From Chamaesiphon sp. (GTDB lineage: Bacteria > Cyanobacteriota > Cyanobacteriia > Cyanobacteriales > Chamaesiphonaceae), in contig CBDFFH010000005.1 in NCBI GenBank assembly GCA_965246715.1, forward strand, positions 160,001-224,000: a stretch of 64,000 bases of DNA, in the 5' to 3' direction. Below, piece after piece: positions 30,195-64,000 of this stretch (its first letter is position 1; every line of letters starts with the position of its first letter). Both the position numbers and the translations under genes were made by a program. The notes below the pieces were generated by a model. It saw nothing but the letters and a program-made list of their open reading frames with translations. It did no database searches and was not told the DNA's origin.

Positions 30195-30365
30195 GAGGAC
30201 ATCAGTAATCGGTGAAGCTGGCCCGCCCCTTAGACAACATTGTTAGTCTGCTGCGTAGATAAGCTCCCACAACTGATGACAGACACACCTAAAGCTGGAC
30301 AGTATCTTAGGCAATCGATTTACCGAAAAGCCTGCAATCACAAGGTTAGTTAAACAGTCTGTCAA
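30195..30365 (+). ncRNA. predicted bridge RNA (target-binding loop + donor-binding loop); 5' end unknown, may begin near 30045
   Basis: Stem CATCAGT/ACTGATG encloses CCCGCCCCT (30222-30230), a hairpin and GTAG (30255-30258). Stem GACAGAC/GTCTGTC encloses ACAGTATCT (30299-30307), a hairpin and ACAAG (30340-30344). Confidence 0.88.
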
Positions 30366-30402
30366 GTTCTTTGAGCATAGTTAGGAGTGGAGTAAGCAGT
30401 TA

Positions 30403-31374
30403 ATGACAGTTAATTTTTTAGGGATAGACATCAGCAAAAAAGACTTTCATGTAGTACTAATCATGGGAGAGACGAGAACAAAATCCAAAAAATTCACCAA
30501 CGATCTGCAAGGGTTTGAGAGTTTGCAGCAGTGGCTCAAACAAAAAGGGATCGACCAAATGCACGCCTGTCTGGAAGCGACCAGCATCTATGGAGACGCT
30601 TTAGCCGAATTCCTCTACTCAGCCAGCTTTGCCGTTAGTGTCGTCAATCCAGCCCGAATTCAAGGGTTTGCCAAGGGCGAACTATTACGGACGAAAACTG
30701 ATTCAGTTGATGCAGCATTGATTGCCCGTTTTTGTGCAGCAATTAAACCAGAACTGTGGAAACCAACAGCCCCTGAAATCAAAGAACTACAAGCCCTGGT
30801 CCGGCGATTAGATTCTCTTCAGGAAATGGTCACAGCCGAACACAATCGCTTGGAAACAGCCACCACCAAAGTAGCTGAACTCACTCAATCTCATCTGACC
30901 TATCTCCAGGAACAGCAAGCCCTAATTAAACAATTAATTAGCGACCATTTCGACAAACATCCAGAGTTAAAACAACAGCGAGATCTGTTGGTCTCAATTC
31001 CTGGAATTGGCGCACAAACTGCGGCTGTCTTGTTGGCAGAAATCGGTCGGATCGAAGATTACCAGAATGCTCGTCAATTAGCTGCCCATGCGGGTTTAAC
31101 TCCATCTGAGCGATCTAGTGGCACCAGCGTTCATGGCAAAACTCGGTTGTCTTGTACTGGTAATTCTCGACTCCGCAAAGCTCTTTATATGCCTGCGGTA
31201 GTCTCGATGCGTCATAATCCTCTGCTCAAAACTTTCAGCGAACGATTACTCGATCGTGGCAAGGCTAAAATGCAGGCGATTGGTGCCATCATGCGTAAAT
31301 TAGTCCATTTGGCTTTTGGCATTTTAAAGTCTCAACAGCCCTTTGACCCTAATTATTCGCTCGCCACCCCTTGA
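30403..31374 (+). CDS. IS110 family DEDD recombinase/transposase
   Basis: GIDISK (D), CLEAT (E) and KTDSVDA (DD); SIPGIG; SSGTS serine motif; GNSRLRKAL. Confidence 0.96.
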   Translation: MTVNFLGIDISKKDFHVVLIMGETRTKSKKFTNDLQGFESLQQWLKQKGIDQMHACLEATSIYGDALAEFLYSASFAVSVVNPARIQGFAKGELLRTKTDSVDAALIARFCAAIKPELWKPTAPEIKELQALVRRLDSLQEMVTAEHNRLETATTKVAELTQSHLTYLQEQQALIKQLISDHFDKHPELKQQRDLLVSIPGIGAQTAAVLLAEIGRIEDYQNARQLAAHAGLTPSERSSGTSVHGKTRLSCTGNSRLRKALYMPAVVSMRHNPLLKTFSERLLDRGKAKMQAIGAIMRKLVHLAFGILKSQQPFDPNYSLATP

Positions 31375-31376
31375 CA
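31371..31376 (+). promoter_or_regulatory. -35 box at the IS110 right end, completing a promoter on circularisation
   Basis: TTGACA overlaps the stop codon. In the circle junction it lies 17 nt before TATCTT (30031-30036). Confidence 0.7.
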
Positions 31377-31408
31377 TTCAAGACAGTATCTACAGATCTG
31401 TGAATAAC

Positions 31409-37200: not shown

Positions 37201-39251
37201 ACACAGACTTTGCCGCGATCGTCCCAAACTTCGTAATTGTCGGGTTGGATCGAGATCGCCCGATCGTAACAATTTAAGGCTTCATCGCAACGGCCTAATT
37301 CGACAAATGCCTTGCCCCGACTGTACCAAATATATGGGTCTTCTGACTGATAGCCAAGCGCTGTATCGTAGTTATCGATCGCTTCGGCATACTTACCCTG
37401 ATGGGCTAGCGCCATGCCCCGATTGTACCAGGCGGCATGAAATTTGGGATTGAGCTTGATGGTATGCGTGTAGCTGCTAATGGCCTCGTCATAGCGACCG
37501 AGATGAAACAACACGAACCCGAGATTATTCCACGCCCGATCGTAATCCGGTCGCAACTTGAGCGTGCGATCGTAACTTTCTAGGGCCAGATCGTATTTAC
37601 CGACATGAAACAGCGCCATCCCCTTGTTGTACCAAGCCTGATGGAATTGGGGCTGAATTTTGAGACAGCATTCGTAACTCTCGATCGCCAAATTGTAGCG
37701 CTGGAGTTGAAATTGAGCGACACCGAGATTATTCCACGCTGTATAAAAGTCTGGGGAGAGCCGTGTCGCTCGCTCGTAGCAATCGATCGCCGCATCGAAT
37801 TTACCCAGTCGAAATAGGGTCTTGCCTTGATTGTTCCAGGCATCACTATGATTGGCTGCAAATTGGGTGGCTTTGCGATAGCAATCGAGCGCATGTTCGT
37901 AGCGCCCCAGTTGAAACAGTGCTTTGCCGCGCTCGTTCCACGTATCGGCATCTTTGGGCAAGAGATTGGTCGCTTGGGTATAACAGTTGAGTGCCTCGGT
38001 GGGACGTTCGAGTTGGAGCAGGATTTGACCCCGATTCATCCAGCCTTCGGCAAATTCCGGCGCTAATTTAGTGACAACGTCATATTTACTCAGTGCTGAC
38101 TCTAATTCACCCAAGTGGAAGAGAATATTGCCACAATGATTCCAGGCTTGATAAAAGTCTGGTTGCAGTTCGGTAACTTTGGTATAAGCCGCTAGTGCCG
38201 CAGATCGATCGCCTAAGAAAAATAATACTTTGCCTTGGTTGAACCAGGCAGCTTGAAAATCTGGCGCGATCTCGATCGCCTGGCGATAGCATTGCAAGGC
38301 TTCTTGAAAACTTTTTTGCTCGAAGTGCGCCACACCCAAATTATTCCACGCCCGATCGAATTGCGGATCGAGTTGGGTGGCTTGTTGGTAGCAATGAATG
38401 GCTGGCTCGAGTTGGCCTAATTGAAATAATGCCAGTCCTTGATTGTTCCAGGCAAATTTGTCCTCAGGATCGATTTGCAAACTGCGCTCGTAACAAGCAC
38501 AGGCTTCTTGGACGCGATCGGTTTGAAATAACAGCCACCCTTTTTGCGTCCAAGTTAACGAATCGGCTGGGGCGATTTCTAGTGCCCGATCGTAAGCAAC
38601 TAGCGCTGATTCGTAATCTTGTAGCTCGAACAGCGCACGACCTTTTTGATACCAAGCAAAATGGTCTTGGGGATTGAGTTCGTTGGCGGAGCTTTCCTGA
38701 AGGGAAATCGCGCGATCGCAACTGGCGATCGTTTCGGGATACAGCCCTAATTGAAACAGTACCCAACCGCGATCTGCCCAAGCGCGAGCATCTTGTGGTT
38801 GGAGATCGATCGCCTGCTGATATGCCGCCAGCGCTTCCTCCAATCGCCCCAATCCGACTAAAATCCACCCTAAATTTGTCCACGCTTCCTGCTTGTGCGG
38901 CTGTAACTCGATCGTCTTGTTGTAGCAAGCCAAGGCAACATCGAGTTTCCCAGCATTTCGATACAAGTTGCCTTGCTCGTACCAAGCTGTTGGATCGTCT
39001 GTAGCAGAAGTAGTATTTAGCAATTCGGCATCCCTGAAAAAATCTTGTCTTCCGATTTCGGGTTCGGCAATAGTCAGTGCTAATGGTACAGCTGGTAAGG
39101 AAATTGGTTGCTCGGCTGAATTTTGGAGCAAGATCGCAGTCTGTCGCTCTTGACGATCGCGCATAGTGGCTTCAGCCGCTCTCACTGAAACCTGCTGTTC
39201 GATCGACGAGTCGCTACTTTTATTTTTGCTCCAAAATCTATTTAAGATCAT
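34239..39251 (-). CDS. giant tetratricopeptide repeat protein (1670 aa)
   Basis: Continuous ~34-aa W..(R/Q)G..L..L..Y..A...Y..A units from about aa 85 to the end. Confidence 0.92.
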   Translation of the reverse strand: MILNRFWSKNKSSDSSIEQQVSVRAAEATMRDRQERQTAILLQNSAEQPISLPAVPLALTIAEPEIGRQDFFRDAELLNTTSATDDPTAWYEQGNLYRNAGKLDVALACYNKTIELQPHKQEAWTNLGWILVGLGRLEEALAAYQQAIDLQPQDARAWADRGWVLFQLGLYPETIASCDRAISLQESSANELNPQDHFAWYQKGRALFELQDYESALVAYDRALEIAPADSLTWTQKGWLLFQTDRVQEACACYERSLQIDPEDKFAWNNQGLALFQLGQLEPAIHCYQQATQLDPQFDRAWNNLGVAHFEQKSFQEALQCYRQAIEIAPDFQAAWFNQGKVLFFLGDRSAALAAYTKVTELQPDFYQAWNHCGNILFHLGELESALSKYDVVTKLAPEFAEGWMNRGQILLQLERPTEALNCYTQATNLLPKDADTWNERGKALFQLGRYEHALDCYRKATQFAANHSDAWNNQGKTLFRLGKFDAAIDCYERATRLSPDFYTAWNNLGVAQFQLQRYNLAIESYECCLKIQPQFHQAWYNKGMALFHVGKYDLALESYDRTLKLRPDYDRAWNNLGFVLFHLGRYDEAISSYTHTIKLNPKFHAAWYNRGMALAHQGKYAEAIDNYDTALGYQSEDPYIWYSRGKAFVELGRCDEALNCYDRAISIQPDNYEVWDDRGKVCVALGQYPEARLSFERALALNPKDAAIWHGYGVVQGLQQEYTAALESYDRALAIDANYYLAWYERGNALFELGRNEYAITNYDRALAIAPNFFAASQGKGQALFKLQRYAEAVVSYDLALAIESNSFECWCQRGYALSHLERWQEALYSYQQALKIDIASSTAWYFQGKTLLKLQRYPEALQAYDRALKIDPQDCHSWNDRGLTLAHLEQPEAAIKSYRQAIVVRPDYHPAWHNLGKESTRIGDTEGALAAYYQAIDFQAQDPDTWYGLGNLLWQLEKLPDAVYAYEQVTNLQPDRHRAWYRQGKALQQLAEWAAADRCYARVASLTPVTYDLSYSHGLVLSKLARWEAALACYNTAIDLDANTHEAWYAKGYALAALQRWEEANSCYERALTLEPENRQAILVDRGRVYAARGEWTNAMETCSQALVLNPDNPEVWEQHGQISLELGDYETAVTSLQTATGLDAERAASWHLLGQSYFHQGEPIEALSAYRKALELEPERAQTWYQRGYLLGTLERWAEAIASYDRAIASDSKFALAWYQRGQVLFKFRGDAVGALENYQRCLELDSSYTAAWYQQGNMLFQSGKLELALESYARALQLNAEDYSIWNNHGNVLGALKRYADALVSYDRALALQPQFYHSWNNRGKALFHLKRYAEAASAHERSLEIHPHDANTWNSRGIALQQLERWQEALACYEQSIEIDSQDPLVWFNRGIALFNLNKYADAIACYDNCAILNPDDSQAYHQRGNALLELGKWEAAIASFDRAILLSPKSDDGTLDPAIGRVWNSRGNALFQLGNYEGALYSYRCATEVAPQDPYGWNNQGTIHLNLQQYSQALQCYQTSLQLHDDDGMTWYKQAIAQQALDKLDDAIVSLDRVITLAPEYALGWYRRGNIYLLRRDFETALVGYETTLKLDPDRAPAWNSRGICLLELNRLDNALFSFEHATGLDPQNPEYWFNKGRVHSSLQQWEEAENCYHQARSLTHPDW

Positions 39252-48691: not shown

Positions 48692-49070
48692 TTAAGTAAC
48701 TGGCGGGAGGATGGATGTTAGATCGATCGAGATATTTGGAAATGCTAATGGCGAATATCTATTCGGTTCGGATAAAATGAGTCGATCTGTATAGCCTGTC
48801 GCAGTCGGGTTACGGAAGATATTTAACTGACGATTTTTGAGATCTACCACCCAGTATTCCATAATTCCAGCATGGGCATAGAATTTATCTTTAACCTCAC
48901 AATCCTGCTTGAGCGTCGAGTCTGCTACCTCTACTACTAAATATATATCTTCAGGATAAGGGTGATGCTCGGTATAATCGAGGACCGTTCCTTTCACAAT
49001 AGCTAAATCTGGTTCTGGTTCGGAGAAATTATCTAATTGAATCGGATCTTGAGTCCGAATCAAATCACTA
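48692..49070 (-). pseudogene. Uma2 family gene, 5' part removed at the IS end
   Basis: QDPIQLDNFSEPEPD, VEVADS and EYWVVD are present. The N-terminal part is not found beyond the IS. Confidence 0.8.
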
Positions 49071-49071
49071 G

Positions 49072-50209
49072 GGGAGCATCCCACTTTTTATTTAGCGATC
49101 GCAAATTAACCCGTTGAGGTAGGCGCAGCGATGCGCTAATACTTGAGGAACATTTTCAGATTTCCACTGCGCTCCAGAAATTTTAGTCCGGCGATCGATC
49201 TGTTTAATTGTAGACTCAATGGAACCAGAACCAATAGAGCAGATTTGTTCGGCTTGAAAATAATAATAATTAATTATCCGATGACGATGTTTCTCTAAAT
49301 AAGCACAAAAGTTTTCAGCTTGCTTGAGATTACAATCACCAAACAACTTAATCGTCTCATCAACTTTTCCGTACCAGAGTAATTCTCTGGCTGCAAATAA
49401 TCTTTGGTTGGAACCGCCAATTTTATGGAGATTTTCCATCAAATGAAACCAGTCGAGAATTTCTCTTCTTTCACCAATAGGTACAAATTCCTTGATGATA
49501 TTCCATACCCCGTCATGGCCATCACCTAAGCAAGTAACAACTGGAGCTAATTCTTGACTATTTACCCAATTAACGATCGTCTCATTTTCTTGAAATGATG
49601 ATGCAATTTTTTGCTGTTGATGTAGTACTGTTGCTTTGTATCCTTTCCAGCTACACACCTCTCCCTTTGGGGTTCTCACTCGAATATTCCCCCCATCTAC
49701 ACTCAATTCTGCCACGGGTGTCTCAGCTTGAGGCAATTCAAATTCTTGTCTGTGAATTAACCTCTGTTGGGCACTTTTTGATATCTCCACTCCAGTTAAA
49801 TATTTGACTTCCTCTGTTGTCCTTTCGTAAGAAATTGATGCACTTATACGCAAGCAACAAGCTTCCAAATACGGACTGATTTGGGTATGACTTTTGATAT
49901 TTAGCTTGGCTGCCTGTTTGCTTGTGATTGCTAATTCTCCAATTATGCTTTGGATCTGTCTTTTATATCCTCCAGTTTCGACTGTGACATTTTCGATAAA
50001 AAAATTCCGACGGATGGCATCACATACTCTTGCATTCTCGCTCTCACCGCTTCTTCGATTTTTCCTAAGCTTGTTAGTTCTTCTTTTGGTGTATTTTTAT
50101 ACAATATTTTGGCAATAGCTTTTGTGTGTCGATCGAGTTCTTTTTGCTCTTCTGGACTCATTACACTACCTTAGTTTACTTGACCCCATTATCTCAAGAT
50201 TATGCTCCC
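49072..50209 (-). mobile_element. ISKra4-type insertion sequence
   Basis: Terminal GGGAGCAT...ATGCTCCC, a two-frame transposase and no visible target duplication. Confidence 0.8.
49092..50161 (-). CDS. ISKra4-type DDE transposase split over two frames (probable -1 frameshift at the T7 run)
   Basis: ORF1 50161-49943 overlaps ORF2 (SVDGG, LGDGHDG, ILDWFHL, IGSG.IES..KQ). Slippery ATTTTTTT at 50005-49998. Confidence 0.8.
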
Positions 50210-50264
50210 TCTGCTGCTATTTTCACCAGATTTCTCGATCGCCATACTAGTACATACGCTTTAT

Positions 50265-52154
50265 CTACATAAAACTCACTAACCCCTTACCATCAGCATC
50301 TTTACATCCATCCTCACACTTGAGAAAATAGCCCTTCTTCACTTTCTTTGTAGGTACTTTAGACATGGGTTTGCTACAAGTCGGACATTTAGAGCGCGAT
50401 TTCTCCAGTTCCTTACCCTGGAACGATCCATAATCCTGCTCCGGTAGATTCTTAGTAGCCCTACTTAATGCTGGCGCAAAATAGCTTCGGTTCCACTCAA
50501 TTAGGTAACTTTGCCATTCCTGCTGACCCTTGGAGATTGCATCGAGTTGAGTTTCCATCCCAGCCGTGAATTCCGATTGAATCAGCTCCGGTAAAGCTTG
50601 CATCAGAAAATCATCCACTTGCAAACCCACAGTCGTCGGTTGCACTTTGCTCTTGACTAACTCGACATAATTACGCTGCTTGAGCGTGGCAATCGTCGGC
50701 GCGTAAGTCGAAGGACGACCGATGCCCTTACGTTCCATCAATTGAACGAGTTTTGGCTCGGAGTATCGCGGTGGTGGCTGGGTCTGTTTCTGCTCGTGAC
50801 TGACATTTGCTGCGGTAAGTGGTTGTTTTGGTTGCAAGCTGGGTAGGACAGCATCACCGCTAATGTCCTTCCAATACTTGGCATAGCCCGCAAATTCGAG
50901 CATTTGACCTCTAGCTTGCCATTGGATCTCGCCAGATTGGGTAACGATCGTGGTTTTACGAATCTGTGCGGGTTTACATTGAGAGGCGATCGATCTCATC
51001 CAAATCATCACGTACAGGGCGAATTCATCCTCTGAAAGCTGCTGTTTGAGTTCGCTTGATGCTTTGGTGATATCCGTCGGTCTGACCGCTTCATGGGCTT
51101 CTTGAGCGTCTTTAGCACTGCGCTGTTTAGAAACTTTTGTCGGTACATTATCTTTGTCATGGGACATCAGCCATTCCCGTGCCGCTTTACAGAAATCCTG
51201 ACTGAGTTCGACTGAATCAGTCCGCATATAGGTAATCAGTCCAGCTTCATAGAGCTTCTGAGCGACTGACATCGTATGTTCGGGGCTGAACTTCAGCCGC
51301 GCTCCTGCGGCTTGTTGGAGCGAGGAAGTGATAAATGGGGCAGGTGGCTTTTTAGGGGCGAGTTTACCTTCGATCGATTTAACTTGATGGGGATGAGATT
51401 TGCCGATCTCGACTAACCTTTCGGCTTCAGCTTGACTCAGTACCCGCGTCGATTCGGCGACTTTTTCGATTGCTCCGGCATCGTCGTTAGTTTCCTCGTC
51501 TGGGGCTGGTGAAATAGCTTGAGCTGTACCGTTGTAGAAGGCACGGAAACCTTCGGCATAGTCTACAAATACCGACCAGTAATCTTGAGGTATGAAGGCT
51601 TGAATTTCTCGCTCTCGTTGACAGACTAAATGGAGAGTTGCAGATTGCACCCGCCCGACGCTTTTCGCACCGTTATTGAGTCGCCAGATTAGGGGCGATC
51701 CTTTGTAACCTACGAGCTTATCCAAACAATCCCGACACCTACCTGCTTCTACTAGAGCCATGTCTAGGGAGCGGGGAGAAGCAATTGCTTTCCTAACAGC
51801 GGACTCGGTAATTTCCTGATAGACAACCCGCTGAGGCTGTTTGAGCTTCAACACCTGGGCAATGTGCCAGCCAATTACTTCACCTTCCCGATCGGGATCT
51901 GAGGCGATGAATACTTTGTCGGCTCGTTCGGCTGCGGAAATTAGTCCGGCGATCGTCTGTTTAGCGCGATCGTCGCGGGGAATGTAGCGACAGTCGATCG
52001 TATTTGAACCCAATTCAAACCCTAACGCACCATCTCCATCATTGGCGAGTTGGCGAATATGTCCGATCGATGCCTTTACATCCCAGTCGGAGCCGAGGAT
52101 ACTCCTCAGCTTTTTGATTTTGCCAGCAGATTCAACAATCAGCAGATTTCGCAT
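50265..52154 (-). CDS. type IA DNA topoisomerase (accessory/plasmid-like copy)
   Basis: LLIVES, ASDPDREGE, GRVQS, catalytic ITYMRTDS, AHEA and GIGRPSTYA. Single C-terminal Zn ribbon. Confidence 0.92.
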   Translation of the reverse strand: MRNLLIVESAGKIKKLRSILGSDWDVKASIGHIRQLANDGDGALGFELGSNTIDCRYIPRDDRAKQTIAGLISAAERADKVFIASDPDREGEVIGWHIAQVLKLKQPQRVVYQEITESAVRKAIASPRSLDMALVEAGRCRDCLDKLVGYKGSPLIWRLNNGAKSVGRVQSATLHLVCQREREIQAFIPQDYWSVFVDYAEGFRAFYNGTAQAISPAPDEETNDDAGAIEKVAESTRVLSQAEAERLVEIGKSHPHQVKSIEGKLAPKKPPAPFITSSLQQAAGARLKFSPEHTMSVAQKLYEAGLITYMRTDSVELSQDFCKAAREWLMSHDKDNVPTKVSKQRSAKDAQEAHEAVRPTDITKASSELKQQLSEDEFALYVMIWMRSIASQCKPAQIRKTTIVTQSGEIQWQARGQMLEFAGYAKYWKDISGDAVLPSLQPKQPLTAANVSHEQKQTQPPPRYSEPKLVQLMERKGIGRPSTYAPTIATLKQRNYVELVKSKVQPTTVGLQVDDFLMQALPELIQSEFTAGMETQLDAISKGQQEWQSYLIEWNRSYFAPALSRATKNLPEQDYGSFQGKELEKSRSKCPTCSKPMSKVPTKKVKKGYFLKCEDGCKDADGKGLVSFM

Positions 52155-52187
52155 AAATTTAGGTGAACTGAGATTTGGCTAGACGAT

Positions 52188-52209
52188 TACCTACGGTAGG
52201 CTTCGCCAA
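52188..52209 (+). repeat. 22-nt mini-element inserted in CGAT^CG
   Basis: CGAT|TACCTACGGTAGGCTTCGCCAA|CG, identical to the reverse complement of 62661-62682. Confidence 0.85.
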
Positions 52210-52322
52210 CGAGTGAAGATCGTTCGATCCACAATAATATAATTATTGCTAATAAATAAGGGCAAGTGCTTACCACTTACAGAACCAAAAAAGGTCGATC
52301 GCCAATCTCAATATAGGAAAAA

Positions 52323-52859
52323 CTAGGCATTAACTTCTCGATTAGGAACGAAAGTACAGAGAATTCCTTCTCTATCCTTAAAAAAGTCAGTTTCAGATAT
52401 CCGATCTAATAAAGTATTTTCACTGAAATCGGCATCGATTACCCTTCCATCTTCAAATACGATAAATTGTCCACCGTATCGATTGATTAATTCGGGAAGA
52501 TGAACGTTGAAGGATTTTTCTTGTTCTTTGAGATAATCATAAGCATCCTGACTCCAAAATAAGTCTCGGACGGTATAGGTGAAAGGATTGCCATCTCGAT
52601 CGACAGCATGAATGATATCTTCCGCCTGAGTGTCTTCTAAATCTGATTTTAAATCTTCTACATTTTCAGAGCTTTGGGCTGTGCTCAGTTTTGTGGTGTG
52701 ACAAACTCGTTCGCCATTAGCAGCAATTTCATTCCGTTGTTGCTCGATTGGTTGTTGGAGTTGTTCGAGTAGACTATCCCGATCTTCAAGGGGAAGACTC
52801 GCGTTGGCGCAGCCTAGCCTCTGGCTAATCGCTTGAACGATTTCTCTATAATTCGTCAT
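52323..52859 (-). CDS. hypothetical protein (C-terminus DUF5678-like)
   Basis: GGAGG RBS and F...LPELI.RY.GQFI....GRVID.D. Confidence 0.6.
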   Translation of the reverse strand: MTNYREIVQAISQRLGCANASLPLEDRDSLLEQLQQPIEQQRNEIAANGERVCHTTKLSTAQSSENVEDLKSDLEDTQAEDIIHAVDRDGNPFTYTVRDLFWSQDAYDYLKEQEKSFNVHLPELINRYGGQFIVFEDGRVIDADFSENTLLDRISETDFFKDREGILCTFVPNREVNA

Positions 52860-53191
52860 GTTGCAATACCTCCAAAGACCGCTCTGGATTAATTTTTAGC
52901 TCCTTTGATGATACTACCTCCTATCCTCTCGTAGGATCGAACAGTTGTTTAGGGCTGATACTGACAGTCTAAATTTACCGATGGCAATCGACCTCTAGGA
53001 TCTTCGCGATCGCCGATAAACATTGCACTTAGTTTGTTACTTAGTAACATATCTAGAACGTTAAGTAATAAACCTAATCTAGGATTAACCAGAAATGAGG
53101 TATTAAATTTAATTGCAAAGTCTAATACAAGTAATGGACTAAGCGATCGCTCCCCCGATCCGATGGATGAATGATTCCATACTTATGCTCA

Positions 53192-54625
53192 TCATATTGC
53201 AATATCCATCGGGACAGAGATACTAACTAAATTTGCCACCGGAGTATATATATCAACGTCAACTCCTGGAACTCTAATTGATACAATCAATGAATAATGA
53301 GAAACTTCGTTGTATCGTTCCAGATATTTCTTTTCTTTCCACCATCCACCCACTGGGTAAACTGCGATCGCATCCTTACTCGCTAATTCAATTGCGGCTG
53401 ACCAAGATGATGGCGTTCCGCAATCGTTAGAACCAACGTTACTGGTAACTGCCATACAGAACACTCGGCGGCGATGAGGGGCTTGGATCTCCGGTAAAAA
53501 TACTCCTTGTTCTGTGATTGCACCGTAAAGTTCAGGATCGTTTTCCCCAATAGTTGGAAGTATTTTGACTGACTCAATGCGGTGTAACAGTTTTACAGGT
53601 TCATCTGTTGCTAGATTGTCTAACATGTAGTCAGCATATAAAGCTATTCCCGCCATCGCAGTCCCATGACCCCGCCGATAAGGACTGTCATTAGTACCCC
53701 AGGATGGCTCAACAGTGTGCATATCATCTGAAGCCAAACCTAGTGCCAGCAGTGGATGAGTTCGTGTTGCACCGCTATCTAGCAAACTGATTGCTACTGC
53801 GTGTTTCCCTGGTTCAATCAGTCGCCTTGCTAAATCTTCAACCCAGTCAAGTTGCTCTCTCGATCCCATCTCCAGAAATATTGATGGGATGTCCTTGGCA
53901 ATGCGTAGTTCCGCTACCGCATCAGAGTTTGCGATAATTCTCGCCATTGCTTCAATGTTAGACATTACTAGAACAATCTCACGCTCTGGGAAAGTAATGG
54001 CATGGTGCTTCGTCCGAATGTTTAGAAATTGAACAACCTGGTCAAAGACACTGCGTCGATCTTTCCGCAGCCAGACCTCCCACCAAACATCTAGTCCATT
54101 TGCTGGAAATAGAGATGGATCGTCTGTAAATAACGATGTGACTTTTCCAACGTGAACTGATTCTATCCGTGATACCAGTCTCTCATTTTTTGGTTTTCCG
54201 CTTTTTTTATCATTTTCATTGCGATACTTTCGTACTTTATTCAAGAAGTAGTCAGCAGCGATCTCTGGGACAAAAACAGTAGCTGAAACCATACCCTCTT
54301 GCTCAGGGATCTTTTTGACAGCGACAAGCTCAATGTTCTTTCTACGATCTCCTAGCTGCTGAAAAGCGTTAGCTTTATCAGCTAAAATTTGAAATTCCAG
54401 GTAAAAGCCAGGTATTCCAGCCGCAATATCTGGTTGGCGAGAGTCTAACTGTTTACGAGCATCCTGAATTGCTAACCCAATGGTCTGTTCTAGAAATTGA
54501 GCGTGTTCTATCCTATTTCGTTCGGGTGGTGGGGGCGATTTACCACCACCTCGACCAGTATAGTTCTCGCTTTTGCCATTATCAGGTAGATAGATATGAG
54601 GAAATTTGCGTGACCGATCGGACAT
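53192..54625 (-). pseudogene. S8 family serine peptidase (IetS-like) with in-frame internal deletion
   Basis: Catalytic D (LLDSG) and H (HGTAMAG) are present but there is no GTS serine motif. PSSWSAAI joins directly to the C-terminal AVYPVGGWW. Confidence 0.75.
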
Positions 54626-54628
54626 ACT

Positions 54629-55627
54629 CTACGCTTTTGTCAGTTGTTGGAAATTAACACCTTGCCGCTCCAAGATAGCGGAAATTAGTGTTTTCTCAAC
54701 GATCTTTTCTGTATTTGATAGCACGGCTTTCTTGGCTGCTTCATCCGCAGCGCGAGCAATCTCCGCTAAACTCAATCCTTGGGCAGCTTTCAGTACTTTT
54801 GACCAATCACGCCATTGGGGATCGAAGATCGAGAGCCGTGTTTCGAGAAGGCGATGAATCATTTCTGCTGTTGGCAGGGTATATTCAATTACGTCATCAA
54901 ATCTTCGGAACAGAGCTTCATCGAGTAGGTTGGGGTGATTGGTTGCCGCAACAATCAAACTCTCACTCTCATCATTCTCGATGAATAGTAAAAAAGAATT
55001 CAGGACACGCCGAATTTCGCCTGTATCGTTGGTGCTGTTACGCTGTGTGCCGATCGCGTCAAACTCATCAAAAAAGTAGACACCTCGCGTCAGTGACATG
55101 GCATCAAAAATTAACTTGAGGCGGCTGGCAGTTTCTCCCATAAACTTACCGATGAGGCTGCTATACATTGCGGTTAGAAGCGGCAGATGCAGTTCTCCAG
55201 CCAAGGCTGATGCCGTCATTGTTTTGCCAGAACCAGGGGGGCCTACCAGTAAGATTTTACGACGCGGAGATAAGTTATAGGATTGAAGGCGATTCCGCTG
55301 TGTTTGTTCTGTCAGAATGCGCTCTAGTCGCAACTCTAGATCGGGCGATAGCACCATGTCCGAGAGTCTTATATCTGGATAGCGAGCGGACAGCAGGCTA
55401 GATAATTCGCCTTTGGGTTGAACTATCGCAACTGGGCTGGTTTTGCGCTCGATCGCGGAGCCACGTTCTTTAGCTTGTTCGATTAATGCTCGAATTTCTT
55501 GAGCGAGTTTCCCATGCCCTTGTCTGGCTTCATTCGCAGCAATTTGAAGGGCAGCAGAATGAAACTGCTGCTCTTCACCTTCTACATAACTTTTTAGAAG
55601 TGCCACGATCTGGCGAGCGTTAGCCAT
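54629..55627 (-). CDS. AAA+ ATPase (IetA-like)
   Basis: GPPGSGKT, FFDEFDAIG, AATNH and LDEALFRRFD. Ends 3 bp upstream of the S8 peptidase. Confidence 0.9.
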   Translation of the reverse strand: MANARQIVALLKSYVEGEEQQFHSAALQIAANEARQGHGKLAQEIRALIEQAKERGSAIERKTSPVAIVQPKGELSSLLSARYPDIRLSDMVLSPDLELRLERILTEQTQRNRLQSYNLSPRRKILLVGPPGSGKTMTASALAGELHLPLLTAMYSSLIGKFMGETASRLKLIFDAMSLTRGVYFFDEFDAIGTQRNSTNDTGEIRRVLNSFLLFIENDESESLIVAATNHPNLLDEALFRRFDDVIEYTLPTAEMIHRLLETRLSIFDPQWRDWSKVLKAAQGLSLAEIARAADEAAKKAVLSNTEKIVEKTLISAILERQGVNFQQLTKA

Positions 55628-55893
55628 GACCTTACTGCCCTCGATTCGGAGCTGTTTATTTTTATTAAGTACTTTGATTCAGTTTACTTTGTTTAACAGA
55701 CCTTTTGTACTGTCAAAAGACGTTACTTTACACAACCCGTCAGGAATGCAACGCCGATTGGCATGAAGTCTCAGTCAACTCAGTGTTTTAGCCTGAATTT
55801 AGGCTGAAATAGTCTCTTAGTAAGGATTTGAGGAAATACTCAACTGGTTGCGATCGAAATGATAGTTGGATACGCAACAATGTGTTGAGAGAT

Positions 55894-56238
55894 TCATTGC
55901 TCTACCTGCTGACAACTTTCAGTAGGAAACAATAAATATGTTCCAGGTCGGATCGCCCATGCTGCATTCTCCCGCCACCAGTTTGCTGCCGCTGGTGAAT
56001 GTGTCGCGAGGATCTCAATGGATCGAGCGGCTTCGACTGTATAACCTTGCTCTTTTTTGGTTCTGCCAGCAAGATGGGCAAAGAACGATCCGAACCCTTT
56101 TTTTGGTCGTGACAGAACGCCGACTGTATCTACATCATGTACTCCAGGAACGGCAAGTGGCAAAACAAGTCCGACCCAATCGGCTCTAACGCTTTCGGGT
56201 GCGTCCCCTGGAGGAGTGCTGATGATGCGGATGTACAT
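55894..56238 (-). CDS. hypothetical protein
   Basis: IRI..TPPGDAPE.VR..WVGL.LPL...AA.WW, 114 aa. Confidence 0.6.
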   Translation of the reverse strand: MYIRIISTPPGDAPESVRADWVGLVLPLAVPGVHDVDTVGVLSRPKKGFGSFFAHLAGRTKKEQGYTVEAARSIEILATHSPAAANWWRENAAWAIRPGTYLLFPTESCQQVEQ

Positions 56239-56329
56239 AACGATCGGTAATATTACTGCTCATACTTATATTTCCCCGCGATCGGAAAGTATGTAACTCT
56301 TGCAAAGATTCGATCGGAGTTAACAGCCC

Positions 56330-56770
56330 TGTATCACCTCAAACTAGGCGGTATCTTGGCGCGAATCTAGTTCTTGATTCAACATCCGCTCGTTGGCGTA
56401 GCCGCGCCGAGAGGTAATCGTCACATCAAAGGCGCGTTGAAATTCTAGGTCTGAGGTTGTAGCGCATTGAAGAGAGCGATAATCTCGTCTAAGGGGTCTT
56501 GCTGGCTCTCCTGGCAGTGACAACCGCGTGGGCTAGTTCTGGGGTGCGAGTTCGGATGCGGTGGAATCTAGGTCAATCGAGTGGTTGAGTCTGACTCGCT
56601 CTAAACTGTAGGTGGAGAGGTCGATACTATTGAGGAGTTGGTCATATTTTGACGAATTGTTTAGCTTTAATTTTGAAGTCTATCTTGCCTGCTTCGGCTA
56701 ATTCTAACTCGGTGGTAAATCTCTGGGCGGCGATATTCATAATCGGGCTGAGTTCGTGGGCAGCGTGACG
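56330..56770 (-). pseudogene. remnant of a type I restriction enzyme R subunit C-terminus
   Basis: Manual translation gives DFKIKAKQFVKI, LLNSIDLSTYSLERVRLNHSIDLD and DPLDEII across stops and frameshifts. Family assignment is from recall. Confidence 0.55.
56393..56416 (-). repeat. 24-nt variant mini-element inserted in CGAT^CG
   Basis: The minus strand reads CGAT|TACCTCTCGGCGCGGCTACGCCAA|CG. Confidence 0.75.
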
Positions 56771-56884
56771 ATAACTTGACAAACCAGTCATAACAGGCTA
56801 AAAGTAGTACAAGCCCATAAAATAGCCCACGTAGTTATTTTTAATGGCTGTAAGCTTTGCATTATAAGGCTTGTGACTCTATTT

Positions 56885-56934
56885 GCACTACTTTGGGGTA
56901 GTAGGGGTCGGAGGTTCAAATCCTCTCGTTCCGA
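56885..56934 (+). other. 3' two-thirds of tRNA-Pro(GGG): attachment-site core
   Basis: Anticodon arm CTACT-TTGGGGT-AGTAG, T arm GGAGG-TTCAAAT-CCTCT and acceptor 3' strand CGTTCCGA. No 5' acceptor strand or full D arm. Confidence 0.85.
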
Positions 56935-57079
56935 TTTGACTGAAACATACGGCACGGCAAGGCTTTTAGGAAACAAACCATTTCTTAACAGCCGTTTTTT
57001 CGTGTCTATGCACTCAAAATAATGTGCTGTTTTGCGTGGTTTGGCTGGTCGATCGCCCACCATTTCACCCACTGTTTTT

Positions 57080-58010
57080 ATGCACATTGAAAAACGCGGC
57101 AATAGCCTCCTCATCAGGTTTTCGCACGATGGCAAGCCCTATAGCTTCAGTTTACCCAAACACAATAATCCGGTGGGGATGTCTGCCGCCAAGATGAAGA
57201 TGGCACAGATCGAGAAAGACATCAACTACGGGAACTTTGATACTACTCTACTCAGATACAAACCTCGCAAGCTTGGGAACGATCCCACAGCGATTAGCGC
57301 AGTCGAACTATTTGAGAAATATATTCCCCACCATCAACAAGAGCGGGGGCTAACTCACGGATCGGGGCTAAGACTTAAAGCGATCCTGTCCAAACTCGAT
57401 CGGTTACTTGGTGATAAACCTGCCGAGAAAGTGACTGAGCCTGTAGCAAAGGATATGGTCGCTAAATGGTTGGAATCGGCATCGAGCAAGACAGTCAAAT
57501 CATATCTGTACTATTTAAAAGCTTGCTGGGATTGGGCAGAGGGCAAGTACCACGTTGCAGAATATAATCCCTGGGAGTGTTGTTTAACCACTGCGATTAC
57601 CAGGGGTCACAAAGCCCCAAATCGGCAACAGAAGAAACCCTTCACTATTGCCGAACTCCAGGCGATTATCTCAGCGTTCGCGACCAATCCATATTACTCT
57701 CACTACACTGAGTTCATCATCTTTCTCGCCTCTACTGCTTGCAGATTTGGGGAAGTTGCAGGGTTGCGATGGCAGCATCTAGGTTCGGACTACACTACCG
57801 TATGGATCGGGGAATCCATCTCTCGCGGCCATCAAAACCAAAAGGGCACCAAAACGGGAAAGCATCGCACTATCCAGTTACCGCCGAATGTGAGAGCGAT
57901 GTTGGTATCCAGATTCAATCGACTATCGCCACAGCCGGACGATCTGGTATTTCCCAGTCCCAAAGGTTTGCCCATCAATGACCATACGTTCAGAAGAAGA
58001 GCATGGAAAA
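57080..58010 (+). pseudogene. tyrosine recombinase/integrase with arm-binding domain, C-terminally truncated
   Basis: TACRFGE..GLRW (catalytic R) and GTKT (K) are present. The sequence diverges after FRRRAWKT, with no HxxR or catalytic Tyr. Confidence 0.82.
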
Positions 58011-58220
58011 CATGCCTTTGTGCCGATCCCGCAACCCTTGACAATTGGCGAAGATTTTGCGGTTGTTCCGTTAGATGTGATGCCCATTTTAACCGATCGG
58101 ATTCGGACGATGGCCGATCGCATCCAGCCCTTTGTACTAGAACCATCGATCCATTTAGTGGAGCAATTAAACTTATCACCAAACGATCGCGCTGATTTAG
58201 ATAATAATTTTTTTGGGTAA
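58011..58220 (+). pseudogene. orphan 3' gene fragment fused at the integrase breakpoint
   Basis: Open frame HAFVPIPQ...NNFFG* ends 3 bp before the DUF389 start, which is operon-like spacing. Confidence 0.45.
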
Positions 58221-58223
58221 GCG

Positions 58224-60038
58224 ATGAAAAAGTTAAGGATCTTACCAAGGCTCAATTGGTTGAGCGATCGGTTTGCCAAAAATCTGGGCGTAAATAACGC
58301 TCGGAAGGAGCAAGTATATTTAGATATCGCCGAGTCAGTCAGCCTCACTGATACCAGCTATTGGATTCAGGTGCTATTTTCGGCGGGGATTGCTACGCTC
58401 GGTTTAGTGTTGAATAGTCCAGCGGTAATCATCGGTGCGATGCTAATTTCGCCCCTGATGGGCAGCATTTTGGCAAATGGACTTGCCCTAGCCACGGGCG
58501 ACATTATCTTAGCTCTGAGGGCAATTTTGAACTTGCTCTTGAGTTGCGGATTGGCGATCGCCTTTGCCATGTTATTGGTGCTAGCTCTGCCATTTAAGGA
58601 AATGACATCGGAAATTATCGCCCGGACTCAACCCAACTTACTAGATCTAGTCATTGCGCTATTTTCTGGGGCAGTGGGGGCGGTGGCTATTTGTAAAGAG
58701 CCAAAAGGGATAGCCACCTCGATTCCAGGTGTATCGATCGCCGTGGCACTGATGCCACCATTATGTGTCGTTGGCTATGGGCTGGGCATGGCGATAACTG
58801 TCAATTCGGCTAATGGACTGGGGGTAGCCCGTGGCGGCGGATTGTTATTTTTAACTAACTTAGTCGCGATTACCTTTATGGCGATGGTGGTGTTTTTGGC
58901 TTTGCACATCGATCCCGATCCAGTGCTAGCCAAAGTGCGAAGCTGGCGAGAAAGCGATCCTGAAAGTATGCGGCTCCAGTCGCTTGTCGATAAATTGCCT
59001 GCCTCCGAGCGAGTGAAGAAAATTGGTGGTTTACCGAGTCGCATAATATTAATCGTGATGACGATCTTACTGGTTTCGTTACCTTTAAATCAGTCTTATA
59101 ATCAGCTTCGCAGTGAAGTCGAGCGCAAACAGCAACAAAATCGCCTGCGGAATGTCGCCACCGAGATCTGGCAAAAAAACTTTGCCGAATTTACCGATGG
59201 CAAAGCCCGATCGTATATCAGCCAACTCTCATTACAAGAGCGAGAGCGAAAATTGACCGCCCAACTTCAGGTGGTGACTAGCAAAATATATACTGAAGCC
59301 GAGCGCGCTCGATATAAAAAACTCTTAGCGGTAAAACTGCTCCGCCCAGTCGAATCGATCGCCCTAAATCTAATTCAGATTCCCACCGCGTCTAGCGACT
59401 TGTTGCAGCAAGTTCCCGTCGCCACTATCCCGTCGCCACCCCCAACAGTTGCCGAATTACAATCGAGTTTTTTGGGGGGGATAGAATCTGTAGCTGAATC
59501 ACTGGTTTTACCAGCTCCGGCTCAATTGGTAAATTATGAAGTTAGTACCAGTCCAGTTGCACCGCTGAAAATTCAGGTGGTTTATTTGAGCGATCGGGAG
59601 ATCGATCGCGATGGAATAGTCTTACTAGCCGCAGAGATCCGCAAGCAATTAAATTATCCGACGGCTGAAGTCAACTTCCAACGCATTGCACCGTTGAACA
59701 TCGCGCTACCGTTCGGGTTGAATCAAGCTAAAATTACGCCCGATCTCACCAGATCGCTCGCTCGAATCGGTTTGCTCCTTCAGCAACAGCCGCGATTGCA
59801 GGTTGAAATAACTGCTAGTCAAACACCTGCGGAAACTGGATCGATCGCCCAGGATCGATCGATGGCTGTGAGCGATTATCTTCAGACTAAATGGCAAATT
59901 CCCGCAGATCGCTATGTAATTAAAACTGAGGCAGGAGCCAAGGCGATCGTCCAACTCAAGACAATTGTCGGATTGTCTCCCAATTCTTCACTGCCCAATC
60001 CAGTCGATCGGGTTGACGAAAAATCGAACCCACAATAA
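58224..60038 (+). CDS. DUF389 (TIGR00341-like) membrane protein with OmpA-like C-terminal region
   Basis: IATLGLVLNSPAVIIGAMLISPLM, EI.ART.PNLLDL and GVSIAVALMPPL. Confidence 0.88.
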   Translation: MKKLRILPRLNWLSDRFAKNLGVNNARKEQVYLDIAESVSLTDTSYWIQVLFSAGIATLGLVLNSPAVIIGAMLISPLMGSILANGLALATGDIILALRAILNLLLSCGLAIAFAMLLVLALPFKEMTSEIIARTQPNLLDLVIALFSGAVGAVAICKEPKGIATSIPGVSIAVALMPPLCVVGYGLGMAITVNSANGLGVARGGGLLFLTNLVAITFMAMVVFLALHIDPDPVLAKVRSWRESDPESMRLQSLVDKLPASERVKKIGGLPSRIILIVMTILLVSLPLNQSYNQLRSEVERKQQQNRLRNVATEIWQKNFAEFTDGKARSYISQLSLQERERKLTAQLQVVTSKIYTEAERARYKKLLAVKLLRPVESIALNLIQIPTASSDLLQQVPVATIPSPPPTVAELQSSFLGGIESVAESLVLPAPAQLVNYEVSTSPVAPLKIQVVYLSDREIDRDGIVLLAAEIRKQLNYPTAEVNFQRIAPLNIALPFGLNQAKITPDLTRSLARIGLLLQQQPRLQVEITASQTPAETGSIAQDRSMAVSDYLQTKWQIPADRYVIKTEAGAKAIVQLKTIVGLSPNSSLPNPVDRVDEKSNPQ

Positions 60039-60125
60039 CGTAAATTGTCTAGTTATGGTTGTACCAAAGATCTAAAAACCCAATTCTCTGCATTATCAAT
60101 TATTAATTATCAATTAATTTAACAA

Positions 60126-61682
60126 ATGATGGAATCGAAGTTACAAGAAGTCGCGATCGCAGGTAATCTCAAGCAGTTTTTGCTGGTACTCGCCGTTTCT
60201 TTGAGCGTGGCGACGCTACCGGAGGCTGTGAGTTGGTTTCGCAAAATCCCTTATACATTATTGCTAGTAATTGTGGGGTTGGGGTTGGCATTTGTCGATG
60301 TGCGACTGGTAAAACTTTCGCCGGAATTAATTTTGTCGATCTTTTTACCACCGCTACTATTTGAAGCAGCTTGGAATTTAAAATGGTCGCGCCTCAAGCA
60401 AGATCTGATTCCAATTTGCTTGTATGCCGTTTTGGGCGTGGTGATTTCGATCGCTGGGGTAGCGGTGGGACTCGATCGACTGGCTGGTTTGCCATTGACT
60501 ACAGCTTTACTGATTGGCGCGAGTTTGTCAGCGACAGATCCGGTATCGGTGACGGCATTATTTCGCGAGTTGGGTGTGGGTAAACGGCTGACAGTCTTGA
60601 TGGAAGGGGAAAGCTTATTTAACGACGGCATGGCAGTGGTGGCTTTTGGCTTTCTGCTGGCATTCGCTCAAGGTACTGCCGATTTATCGGTGCAGCGGAT
60701 TTTAGCTCAGCTAGTGATAGTCGTCGGGATTGGGCTAGGAACTGGCTGCATCATTGGCTTTGCGATTTCTTATCTGACGCAACGGTTCGATCTGCCCTTG
60801 GTAGAGCAGTCGCTTACCTTAGTTTCTGCTTATGGGGCTTACTTAATCGCTGAGGATTTAGGCGGCTCGGGGGTGATGGCGGTGGTAGCCACTGGCTTGA
60901 TTTTGGGCAACTTCGGCTCGCAGATCGGGATGAATCCTCGGACGCGGATTATTGTGACGGAATTTTGGGAATTTTTAGCCTTTTTTGTCAATTCGATCGT
61001 CTTTTTATTAATTGGCGACCAGATTCGGTTTGAGGTTTTGGGTAAAAATTGGATCTCGATCGCCGTGACGATTGGCGCGATGATTGTGATGCGGGCGATC
61101 TCCATCTACGGACTAGGCGGATTGAGCAACCGATTTGCTAAGTCCGATATTCCCTTGCCAGACCAAACGATCCTCTGGTGGGGCGGGTTGCGGGGTGCAG
61201 TGTCGATCGCCCTTGCTTTGAGCGTACCGGAGAGCTTGCCAGGGCGGGAGACGGTGATTGCGACGGTATTTGGCACAGTATTATTTACTTTGCTCGTCCA
61301 AGGACTGACGATTCAGCCGCTGTTGTCCAAACTCGACCTACTAGGCGACCAGCCATTACAGCAACGGTACTTAGAAGCGACCGCGCGGGAAGCGGCTCTC
61401 AATCGGGTGCTAGAGCATTTGGGCGATATCGACAAACATCCAGGCATCGATCCGGAGTTTTATAACTATCAAGTGGCATTGGTCGAGGGTGAAATATCCA
61501 ATCTCGAAATCGAAATCGATCGGCTCAAAGATGAGTATCCGAACTTACAAACATTTATCTCCGAGCAGCTAAGGGAAGAACTACTCGCGATCGAAGCTGA
61601 TACTTATGCTGAGTTGGTAAGGGCGGGTCGCTTGAATCGAGAACTACCACTGTTTCTGGGGATCGATCGCCGTGGACACTAG
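60126..61682 (+). CDS. CPA1/NhaP-type Na+/H+ antiporter
   Basis: FLPPLLFEAA, SATDPVSV, EGESLFNDG and GGLRGAVSIAL. Confidence 0.93.
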   Translation: MMESKLQEVAIAGNLKQFLLVLAVSLSVATLPEAVSWFRKIPYTLLLVIVGLGLAFVDVRLVKLSPELILSIFLPPLLFEAAWNLKWSRLKQDLIPICLYAVLGVVISIAGVAVGLDRLAGLPLTTALLIGASLSATDPVSVTALFRELGVGKRLTVLMEGESLFNDGMAVVAFGFLLAFAQGTADLSVQRILAQLVIVVGIGLGTGCIIGFAISYLTQRFDLPLVEQSLTLVSAYGAYLIAEDLGGSGVMAVVATGLILGNFGSQIGMNPRTRIIVTEFWEFLAFFVNSIVFLLIGDQIRFEVLGKNWISIAVTIGAMIVMRAISIYGLGGLSNRFAKSDIPLPDQTILWWGGLRGAVSIALALSVPESLPGRETVIATVFGTVLFTLLVQGLTIQPLLSKLDLLGDQPLQQRYLEATAREAALNRVLEHLGDIDKHPGIDPEFYNYQVALVEGEISNLEIEIDRLKDEYPNLQTFISEQLREELLAIEADTYAELVRAGRLNRELPLFLGIDRRGH

Positions 61683-61846
61683 CCAAAAAAGACCAGCTAT
61701 TTACCCGCATCCTCGATGAATTTCTCGATACAGATGGGCGAGTGGAGTTTGCTTCGGCTACCTTCCACTTGGTGGAAGCTCCGGTATTTAATGTGAGATT
61801 GACCGATGGTGGTGACAAAGATCTTCTGCCTCGATCGGCTGATTGA
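61682..61846 (+). pseudogene. orphan C-terminal fragment, probably of an MscS-family channel
   Basis: Open frame KDQLFTRILDEF..TDGRVEFASATFHLVEAPVFNVRL with no start. Family assignment is from recall. Confidence 0.4.
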
Positions 61847-61879
61847 AATAAATATTATTTACAGATATCTTCTGACAAT

Positions 61880-63233
61880 TCAATGTTGTTCGATCGCTTT
61901 CACAGCAGCTAGATATCGTTCCTTAATGTCGTTGCGATCGAACTCTTCGGTAATTCCTTTGTGACTACCACACTCAATCATATTGGCGTGGCGCAATAGT
62001 GCGGCTCGGTCTGCTCTAGTATGGGTAAAAGGGGCAATGACGGCGATCGCTTCGAGCAACCGCATCGTGACTGCTACACTTGTTTGCCCATACTGCCGAA
62101 TCTGATTAAAAGCAGCATCAGTCACATCTACAAAAGTCACGGGTTCGGCAATGACGCGCAGCTTATCTTTGTTATCATAACGATAGGCAGAAGGAATCTC
62201 TTTTTGTGCCAAGTGACAAAGTGCGGCACTGAGTCGATCGATACAGCCAATGGCGGTAAAGGGATCGTTAATTCCTGGTGATAGGGCGCGGACGGCAATC
62301 TCAACCAGTTGGTTAATCGAAAACTCGACATCTTGCTGCTCGGTGCGCTGCGAACCTAAGACAAAGGCATCATTAATTTGTTTAACCAGCTTTTTGCCAC
62401 CCGATGCTGCGGGATAAACAACTGCCAAAGGACTTCCTTTAACCACAAAGTCTCCAGGACGACGCTGAAGCTGAATCAGGGTATTGCTCTCCGTGGCAAT
62501 TTGCATCAACTGGTCTGTATCGATCGCTTGCACATAGCGACTACCATTCGCTGGAATGGGGGATGCCTCGCGATCGAAATTGGCTGGAACATCTGAGGTG
62601 AGTGGTTCTGCTCGATGCTTCGAGGCACCCCGTCCGATCTGTTTGGGAAAGAGGCGATCGTTGGCGAAGCCTACCGTAGGTAATCGCTTCATCTAGCTCA
62701 CATCCCACCTGATGAATGACACGATCGACTTGAATGGACGTGGCTGAATGGTGAATAAAGTAGATTAAAACGCCAACACTGGCGATCGCTAGTCCAATCC
62801 CACAGGTGACGGCAATATGAGGCACAAACTCATTTTTGGCAACGCCATTAATGGTTCGCAGCACCATCAGGCTATACACAAAGGTGGAGATAAAAGTCCC
62901 TAAGACAATCTGGTTGCCAGTATCTCGCATAAAGTTACGCAGCAGACGCGGGCCAAATTGCGAGGAAGCAAGCTGAAGGGCAACGATCGTAATGGAAAAT
63001 GCCGTCGTAGCCACACTCACCATCGAACCTGCAATAGCAGAAAGAATCGCGCGCGAACCGCTGGGGCCGAGCGAATATGCCCACCCCACCTGCCCAATTA
63101 TGTCTGTTTTTGAGCTTTGGTCGAGATGAATGGTAAAAAACGAAAGCACGATCGCCAACACCACCATCAAGCTTGGAATGAACCAAAAGCTAGAGTGCAG
63201 CGAATCCAACAGCTTGCTAAATTTGGTTCCCAT
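61880..63233 (-). pseudogene. DUF2254 membrane protein frameshifted by a 22-nt insertion
   Basis: N-part (LQLASSQFGPRLLRNF) and C-part (RALSPGINDPFTA) lie in different frames. Removing 62661-62682 restores EAIDRLFP. Confidence 0.88.
62661..62682 (-). repeat. 22-nt mini-element inserted in CGAT^CG
   Basis: The minus strand reads GCGAT|TACCTACGGTAGGCTTCGCCAA|CGATCGC. Confidence 0.88.
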
Positions 63234-63236
63234 TCG

Positions 63237-64000
63237 CTATTTCTCTACTGCGGCATCATGTGCTGCGCTACCTGCTGAATCACCGTTTCGTTGAGCCAGT
63301 TGCTTTAGCGAACTGCTGATGCTGCGTGACTGCGGCACATCGCCCTTGCCAGCGGGCCAGCCTTCACGTTGATGAGCGCGATCGCCATCCGTAGCTTCGG
63401 TCTGGTCGTGAAACAGAATTTGCTGGGTGGGGAAGGGAAGGTCGATGCCGTGTGCCGTTAACGTGTTTTTAATGTTCGTCAATACGCGATCTTGCAGGTC
63501 TAGCACATCAGCACGACGCGGCGGTGAAACCCACCAGCGGGCGCGAATGTTGACAGTACTGCCCGCTAAATCGACCACGATCGCATCTGGGGCAGGATTT
63601 TCTAACACGCCATCCGTTTGATATATTGCCTCTAGAATTAACTGCCGCGTTGTGTTGATATCATCCCCGTAGCCAATACCGATGTCATACTGCAAACGAC
63701 GATGTTCAAAGGCAGTATTAACTGTAACAGAGTTAGTAAAAAGCTCAGAGTTGGGAATTACAATCCGCCGACCGTCATAGGTTCTAATGGTTGTGGCGCG
63801 GGTTTGAATATTTTCTACAGTCCCCTCGAAATTCTTAAAAACAATTTGATCGTCAATCTGAAAGGGTTCGGTCAACAGAATTAAAATACCCGCTAAAAAG
63901 TTCTGTAAGATATCTCGAAACGCAAAACCGATCGCCACGCTACTAACTCCTAGTAGCTGTACCAGATCGCCAGCTTTGAGCGAGGGAATCACGATCGACA
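63237..64000 (-). CDS. MscS-family mechanosensitive channel (5' part outside window)
   Basis: AIGFAFRDILQNFLAGI, PF.IDD.I, T.IRTYDGRR..IPNS and GIDLPFP. Confidence 0.92.
   Translation of the reverse strand, partial: SIVIPSLKAGDLVQLLGVSSVAIGFAFRDILQNFLAGILILLTEPFQIDDQIVFKNFEGTVENIQTRATTIRTYDGRRIVIPNSELFTNSVTVNTAFEHRRLQYDIGIGYGDDINTTRQLILEAIYQTDGVLENPAPDAIVVDLAGSTVNIRARWWVSPPRRADVLDLQDRVLTNIKNTLTAHGIDLPFPTQQILFHDQTEATDGDRAHQREGWPAGKGDVPQSRSISSSLKQLAQRNGDSAGSAAHDAAVEK

Follow-up and report, generated by a model that had tools for sequence, protein, structure and literature searches.

A mobile family of very small twin-hairpin elements inserted at CG^ATCG in Chamaesiphon, possibly copied as folded single-stranded DNA

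A 64,000-nucleotide stretch of a Chamaesiphon sp. genome (assembly GCA_965246715.1, contig CBDFFH010000005.1, positions 160,001 to 224,000; hereafter the window) carries a 22-nucleotide (nt) element that interrupts a gene encoding a DUF2254 membrane protein. This element belongs to a family that is real, mobile and present genome-wide: its junction CG|TT is exact, the pairing of its two hairpins is conserved, and forms ending in TA or CA overwrite bases of the target. We tentatively explain the family, with less than even confidence, as a non-coding and non-autonomous micro-element that would be copied as folded single-stranded DNA and joined after CG by a trans-acting enzyme, probably of the HUH type.

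The DUF2254 gene (61880–63233, minus strand), recognized by Pfam matches and homologues, is split into two frames by the copy at 62661–62682 (plus strand; 62659–62686 with its target core CG^ATCG). This copy is made of TT, a first hairpin GGC-GAA-GCC, a T, a second hairpin ACC-GTA-GGT and a final A. The two halves of the gene are the open reading frames (ORFs) 62541–63233 and 61880–62692, covering Pfam positions 2–180 and 181–367, respectively, and the inactivation of the gene announced in an earlier reading of the sequence alone (the original prediction) is borne out. The same prediction used the restoration of the frame as independent proof of the insert boundaries, an argument that fails because many deletions of 19, 22, 25 or 28 bases also reopen the DUF2254 frame; frame restoration alone is thus not diagnostic. 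What sets the boundaries is the comparison with homologues, which have an equal length, and with empty alleles that are near-identical but lack exactly 22 bases at 62661. Three studies provided four public runs with contigs that span the site without these bases and differ by 1–8 other letters over 349–604 bases (98–99.8% identity), the gap falling at 62661 in three of the four; runs with small shares were excluded. Since contigs of two other public runs extend from the DUF2254 gene into the element, both alleles appear to exist. At this site, the empty alleles and homologues also exclude a model with a 2-bp (CG) or 4-bp (CGAT) duplication.

The three sequences originally reported are present between CGAT and CG without duplication. 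The second is identical to the DUF2254 copy and lies in the intergenic region upstream of a topoisomerase IA gene (52188–52209, minus strand); its site is empty in the relatives L032 and L033, where another copy, of 24 nt, is found some 10 bases from it. The third is an intergenic 24-nt variant with an imperfect second hairpin (56393–56416, plus strand), which has related variants elsewhere in the genome and for which no empty site was found in the relatives compared. The window holds two more: a 24-nt copy with the second hairpin TAGCC-TCT-GGCTA (52804–52827, plus strand), placed in frame inside the ORF 52323–52859, and a worn 24-nt copy (38683–38706, plus strand), common to the relative G011, within the span of a 1670-amino-acid ORF (34239–39251). 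An equal register of target and insert is found at 52184–52211, 52802–52831 and 56391–56420. The island link drawn from the three original copies has to be softened: the family is genome-wide and the worn copy lies outside the island, but there is a bias to accessory DNA. Of 196 copies, 17 fall in DNA common to the compared part of a close relative, versus 985 of 3000 CGATCG sites. In one relative, 24 of 79 copies are carried by its two small contigs.

In the 6.12-Mb genome, the leading 13-mer CGTTGGCGNAGCC occurs 226 times, versus 0 in 3 Mb of order-5 Markov sequence, the strict full pattern has 171 matches (reversed control, 0) and a relaxed pattern detects 281 copies. Among 671 matches to the expression TACC...CGCCAA, those flanked by CGAT and CG form the largest class (55). 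A flank-free search with the 22-mer returned 58 copies, with C at −2 in 58, G at −1 in 55 and A, T, C and G at +1 to +4 in 56, 56, 55 and 52, respectively, positions −3 and +5 being variable. The predicted fixed flanks and fixed orientation hence extend to the whole genome, CG and ATCG being near-invariant and the same strand always being joined after CG.

Read on the other strand, the family has the form CG|TT-(GGC or CGC)-GNA-(GCC or GCG)-T-hairpin-A|ATCG, with lengths (n = 186) of 22 nt (49 copies), 23 nt (8), 24 nt (111), 25 nt (17) and 29 nt (1). The first stem is GGC/GCC in 175 and CGC/GCG in 46 of 257 copies, and its outer pair covaries (G-C 125 and C-G 35, of 167). The first loop is GNA in 168 of 192 copies, N taking all four bases (74/56/22/16), and the invariant core of the element is the heptamer GCGNAGC. 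The second hairpin, of which 82 variants were found, keeps its pairing but not its sequence; across 72 distinct 13-nt versions picked without a fold filter, pairs 2–5 are Watson-Crick in 56–64, versus shuffled maxima of 39–54, a result that we take as support and to which we attach no p-value because related sequences are not independent. The end TACCT, described as conserved in the original prediction, turned out to be only one hairpin variant, that of the 22-nt copies.

Filled and empty sites were further compared with G011, a relative with 94–97% identity in the core genes compared, over 2.8 of the 4.75 Mb of chromosome. Thirty of 59 located copies are empty in G011, about half of them being repeat paralogues, and in the reverse direction 11 of 36 G011 copies are empty in the present genome (G000). 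Identical 22-mers stand in unrelated flanks (two sequences, 14 copies each), and copies are nested in each other and in a repeat of about 200 bp. This palindromic repeat (67 motif hits in G000, e.g. C15:381294 and C29:120716) has internal hairpin loops and a central segment that are often inverted between copies, about 25 of which carry the micro-element. A sub-family ending in GCAG uses as landing sites the GNA loops of hairpins other than its own, also those of other copies, leading to nested mosaics (G000 C20:17513, C37:31339, C2:238139 and C5:244992).

The right-hand junction was analyzed in 45 de-duplicated filled/empty contexts, four of which were omitted from the tail comparison as their net length differs from the hairpin length (two are one base shorter and two misaligned). 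The tail is AT in 33 contexts, and the empty site has a central AT in 30 of these, versus 58%; the 8 contexts that have other tails all depart from the empty site at +1 or +2 (Fisher p 2e-6). In the repeat of about 200 bp, CG^AA stands in all 45 empty copies and CA in 23 filled ones, these CA tails probably being a single amplified event. At the starts of host elements on the other strand, AA is found in 69 of the 88 sites that are unfilled and TA in none, and 25 filled sites (18 contexts, several genera) have TA, the tail that the scan required; CG-TA-CG is the rarest such hexamer in the genome (346). The TA- and CA-tailed forms bring one or two bases and remove an equal number from the target, later mutation being possible in single contexts. 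This overwriting suggests that the unit is copied with a short tail and not cleanly excised, and the AT tail may also be borne by the donor. Targets other than CGATCG are in use, namely CG^AACT, the GNA loops of other copies and CG^AGCG.

According to the scheme that we favor, a filled site would give rise, by copying, to a single strand of the element that folds. An enzyme acting in trans by nicking and strand transfer, and probably belonging to the HUH type, would join this DNA strand exactly after CG. The 3' junction would then be resolved loosely by short pairing of the donor tail with the target, making an AT tail invisible wherever it matches CGATCG. Selection would keep the 24-nt in-frame copies within genes and remove most of the 22-nt ones, the DUF2254 copy being a recent exception; by simple ORF calling, 63 of 163 24-nt copies and 6 of 65 22-nt copies are inside ORFs. 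The single-stranded stage, the tail pairing and the enzyme class are what we infer. The invariant GCGNAGC points to single-stranded DNA, this heptamer being described in PMC13037366 as an extraordinarily stable and nuclease-resistant DNA mini-hairpin, with considerably less stable RNA counterparts. The HUH-like enzyme is ranked first because HUH enzymes perform this chemistry on hairpin DNA: according to PMC8266576, TnpAREP and similar enzymes cleave hairpins of single-stranded DNA at a dinucleotide and ligate a 3'-OH without duplication, and PMC6006769 also describes this chemistry.

Several observations weigh against the copying of a folded strand by such an enzyme. The ViennaRNA minimum fold of the 22-nt copy, on the CG|TT strand, is not the twin hairpin, and just 38 of 115 copies with a 13-nt second hairpin have a GNA loop. 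Overwriting by AT tails was not borne out, the early count of 4/15 (p 0.001) having been followed by 0/15 and then 3/33; the latter, for copies whose central dinucleotide differs, compares with a background of 298 of 9,251 orthologous CGATCG sites (p 0.09). There is no replichore strand bias (permutation p 0.71 and 0.25), in genomes with a weak skew and no clear dnaA, and complementary DNA made by a reverse transcriptase would have the same strand. Lastly, no mobilizer was found through IS110 ends, REP/RAYT loci, phages or flanked genes. Profile searches of the genome gave 6 Y1, 11 IS110 and 22 RVT_1 matches. Two RAYT genes have an element copy in their REP spacers and coordinates hinted at further cases, but among 20 further RAYT-like loci, drawn from 92 matches in the genus, only 3 have an element, versus 94 of 1335 control windows (p 0.16; 7% expected), and the RAYT link was rejected. 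A RAYT gene is present in 0 of 91 element-centered loci and an IS200-type gene in 2, and copies are not enriched near GTAG REPs (5/119 vs 346/7204).

Other candidate carriers were considered. No flanked gene family was found beyond duplicated genes, and 14 viral matches, GC-rich or CGATCG-poor and devoid of a proper second hairpin, were judged to be due to chance. A search for IS91-type Y2 enzymes gave no match in five genomes, in which the control also matched nowhere. As a separate observation, full-length dnaA was not found in G000, G011 and G323, where PF00308 gave weak partial matches and two controls from other families strong ones; PF08299 had no match in G011 and G323, and a literature search on Chamaesiphon with dnaA returned no relevant report.

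Ranked close behind the HUH-like enzyme, and possible in our view, is a process without any dedicated enzyme, in which the element rides on CGATCG-directed recombination or repair of the host: incoming single-stranded DNA that carries a filled site would anneal by its CG and ATCG to a target that is nicked or methylated, the folded element forming a loop that repair would then fix in place. The bias to accessory DNA and the abundance on the small contigs of one relative fit such a route, as does the absence of a partner gene in the scans of flanking genes and loci. In PCC 7002, integration is increased by methylation of HIP1 even when homology is lacking (10.1101/2024.09.10.611283). The occurrence of HIP1 follows that of competence genes, a GIY-YIG nuclease, a recombinase-family protein and RadC (PMC13756078), and HIP1-directed cutting was proposed for SDR5 (PMC4390886). 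However, six bases are a very short homology, the targets other than CGATCG listed above are also used, and the invariant first hairpin suggests a specific recognition.

A broader and more speculative version, to which we give a rather low probability, is that of a phylum-wide superfamily of single-stranded DNA cassettes of 24–27 nt led by GCGNAGC, which an enzyme would swap between two CG anchors, their own tail replacing the central bases. If true, SDR5-like repeats would owe some of their apparent specificity for HIP1 to sequence that they bring along themselves. The enzyme would then write micro-insertions seamlessly and might also be the activity from which HIP1 sites arise.

It is doubtful that the element is made by reverse transcription of an opposite-strand RNA, with a nick after CG as primer, so that the precise end would be the priming end and the tailed end would be resolved loosely. 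One precise and one variable junction fit target-primed copying, and the genome has 22 RVT_1 matches. On the other hand, neither the element nor its first hairpin occurs within 1.5 kb of the four reverse transcriptase loci examined out of these 22, intergenic copies between codirectional genes have no orientation bias (47 on the same strand, 53 opposite), there is no Rfam match in window positions 50000–64000, and the conserved motif is a DNA-type hairpin.

The original prediction favored a site-specific or RNA-guided recombinase acting in trans. Such an enzyme could be of the IS110/bridge type or a serine recombinase cutting at the central dinucleotide, and it would insert a small circle. We consider this unlikely, although the insertion is precise and duplication-free at a palindrome, the changes center on the two middle bases of CG-NN-CG and the genome has 11 IS110 matches. 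The left core TT, the right core AT, TA or CA and the target core mismatch one another, and the overwriting of target bases by TA and CA tails is hard to square with a conservative exchange between matched cores. The IS110 family of the window has no terminus, core or hairpin in common with the element and is itself inserted at REP-like ends, and the first hairpin was not found near the four loci examined for a second IS110 family; this speaks against an IS110 non-autonomous derivative, and RNA guidance of the insertion has no support. The IS110-family element of the window (30003–31393) has four near-full-length copies plus an interrupted one, with ends in GTAG-type REP repeats, and the second family likewise has its ends in such repeats. 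Finally, the view that the copies are not mobile, arising by local template switching or kept as host signals such as terminators, finds some appeal in their very small size and palindromic content but is already refuted by the clean empty alleles without precursor, the identical 22-mers in unrelated flanks, the nested copies and the gene disruption.

As had been predicted, the family belongs to the broad small dispersed repeat (SDR) type, being a dispersed, structured and demonstrably mobile repeat of the 20–27 nt kind. It is a variant of this type and not SDR5 proper, set apart from the descriptions of SDR5 by its hexamer target and its occurrence outside Nostocaceae. Only 4 of 58 strict copies lie in GCG^ATCGC, the family targeting the hexamer core, whereas SDR5 is said to target exclusively the octamer GCGATCGC. 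The 2008 SDR study by Elhai et al. reportedly found that SDR1, SDR4 and SDR6 of Nostoc share a secondary structure with compensatory changes, and that SDRs nest in their own copies and insert into mini-transposons. Compensatory structure, nesting and insertion into mini-transposons are all seen here, and the family may share sequence with one of SDR1, SDR4 or SDR6 while using the SDR5 target; SDR4–6 were compared by description, and the 2008 study may already show these sequences, tails or structures. With SDR5, a repeat of Nostocaceae, the family has in common its tiny size, the register CG^ATCG and the lack of duplication, and PMC4390886 states that SDR5 enters HIP1 exactly after its third base. 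In contrast, its length is 22–25 nt, versus the 21 nt given for SDR5 in PMC13756078; function and mobilizer of SDR5 are reported as unknown. Its sister forms use other targets and overwrite bases. It is also abundant in a Chamaesiphon-like genus that forms a family of its own, whereas SDR5 is described as restricted to Nostocaceae, and PMC5861425 reports no SDR-like repeat outside Nostocaceae. A literature search, most subscription papers lying outside it, found no report that deals with repeats of this kind in Chamaesiphon or with the enzyme that moves them.

The genome contains 27,619 CGATCG and 2,789 GCGATCGC, TCGATCGA being the commonest CGATCG extension; the rates of CGATCG and GCGATCGC agree with the Chamaesiphon row of Table 2 in PMC4390886. 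At orthologous CGATCG sites of G000 and G011, the commonest alternative is CGAGCG/CGCTCG (165 of 9,251), of the transversion class, which outnumbers CGATCT/AGATCG and CGATTG/CAATCG and is relevant to the gain of HIP sites.

The family also resembles REP/REPIN sequences with their RAYT (TnpAREP) and the ends of IS200/IS605 in being made of short, strand-specific and non-autonomous hairpins that insert without duplication. It differs from them in its fixed target, its many in-frame genic copies and the lack of a conserved GTAG at the hairpin foot, GTAG being seen only when loop N is T (74/192) or inside one hairpin variant. Identity with GTAG REP/REPIN was rejected, no GTAG being conserved 5' of the stem and no cognate RAYT flanking the copies, with few adjacent cases. 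The absence of terminal inverted repeats and of target duplication led us to discard a miniature inverted-repeat transposable element of a DDE transposon.

Strict copies were found in all 27 genomes of the genus searched (16–235 per genome) and in 39 of 301 genomes of the phylum, mostly with 1–12 copies and none outside the class. Among the matches listed, 117 loci have a sister form with a TA tail, which is structured in 85 of them, chiefly from Scytonema, Brasilonema, Chamaesiphon and Oscillatoria; this form is present in named Chamaesiphon records, and the same first hairpin as in the element is common in named Scytonema and Brasilonema records. With a looser class-wide pattern, run on one strand with overlapping lengths and often matched by its control, only high counts are meaningful.

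The question of how such repeats of about 22 bases are moved dates from 2008, and that of what HIP1 does is older still. The present family offers a minimal substrate in which the positions that are free and those that are fixed are known. It comes with natural alleles, both filled and empty, and with a tail that can be marked, so that strand, chemistry and dependence on methylation are testable with short oligonucleotides. Its copies insert peptides of 8 residues into dozens of accessory proteins and can inactivate genes.

Other features of the window were noted. The topoisomerase IA gene (50265–52154), whose G011 homologue is on a small contig, is abutted at its 3' end by a 1.2-kb insertion sequence (49070–50276) with at least 8 further near-identical copies. 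An AAA ATPase adjoins a subtilase-family peptidase (53192–55627), an arrangement reminiscent of the IetAS pair, and a tyrosine integrase is encoded at 57032–58195. At 63291, the alleles of an MscS-family gene in two public runs carry a 12-base insertion.

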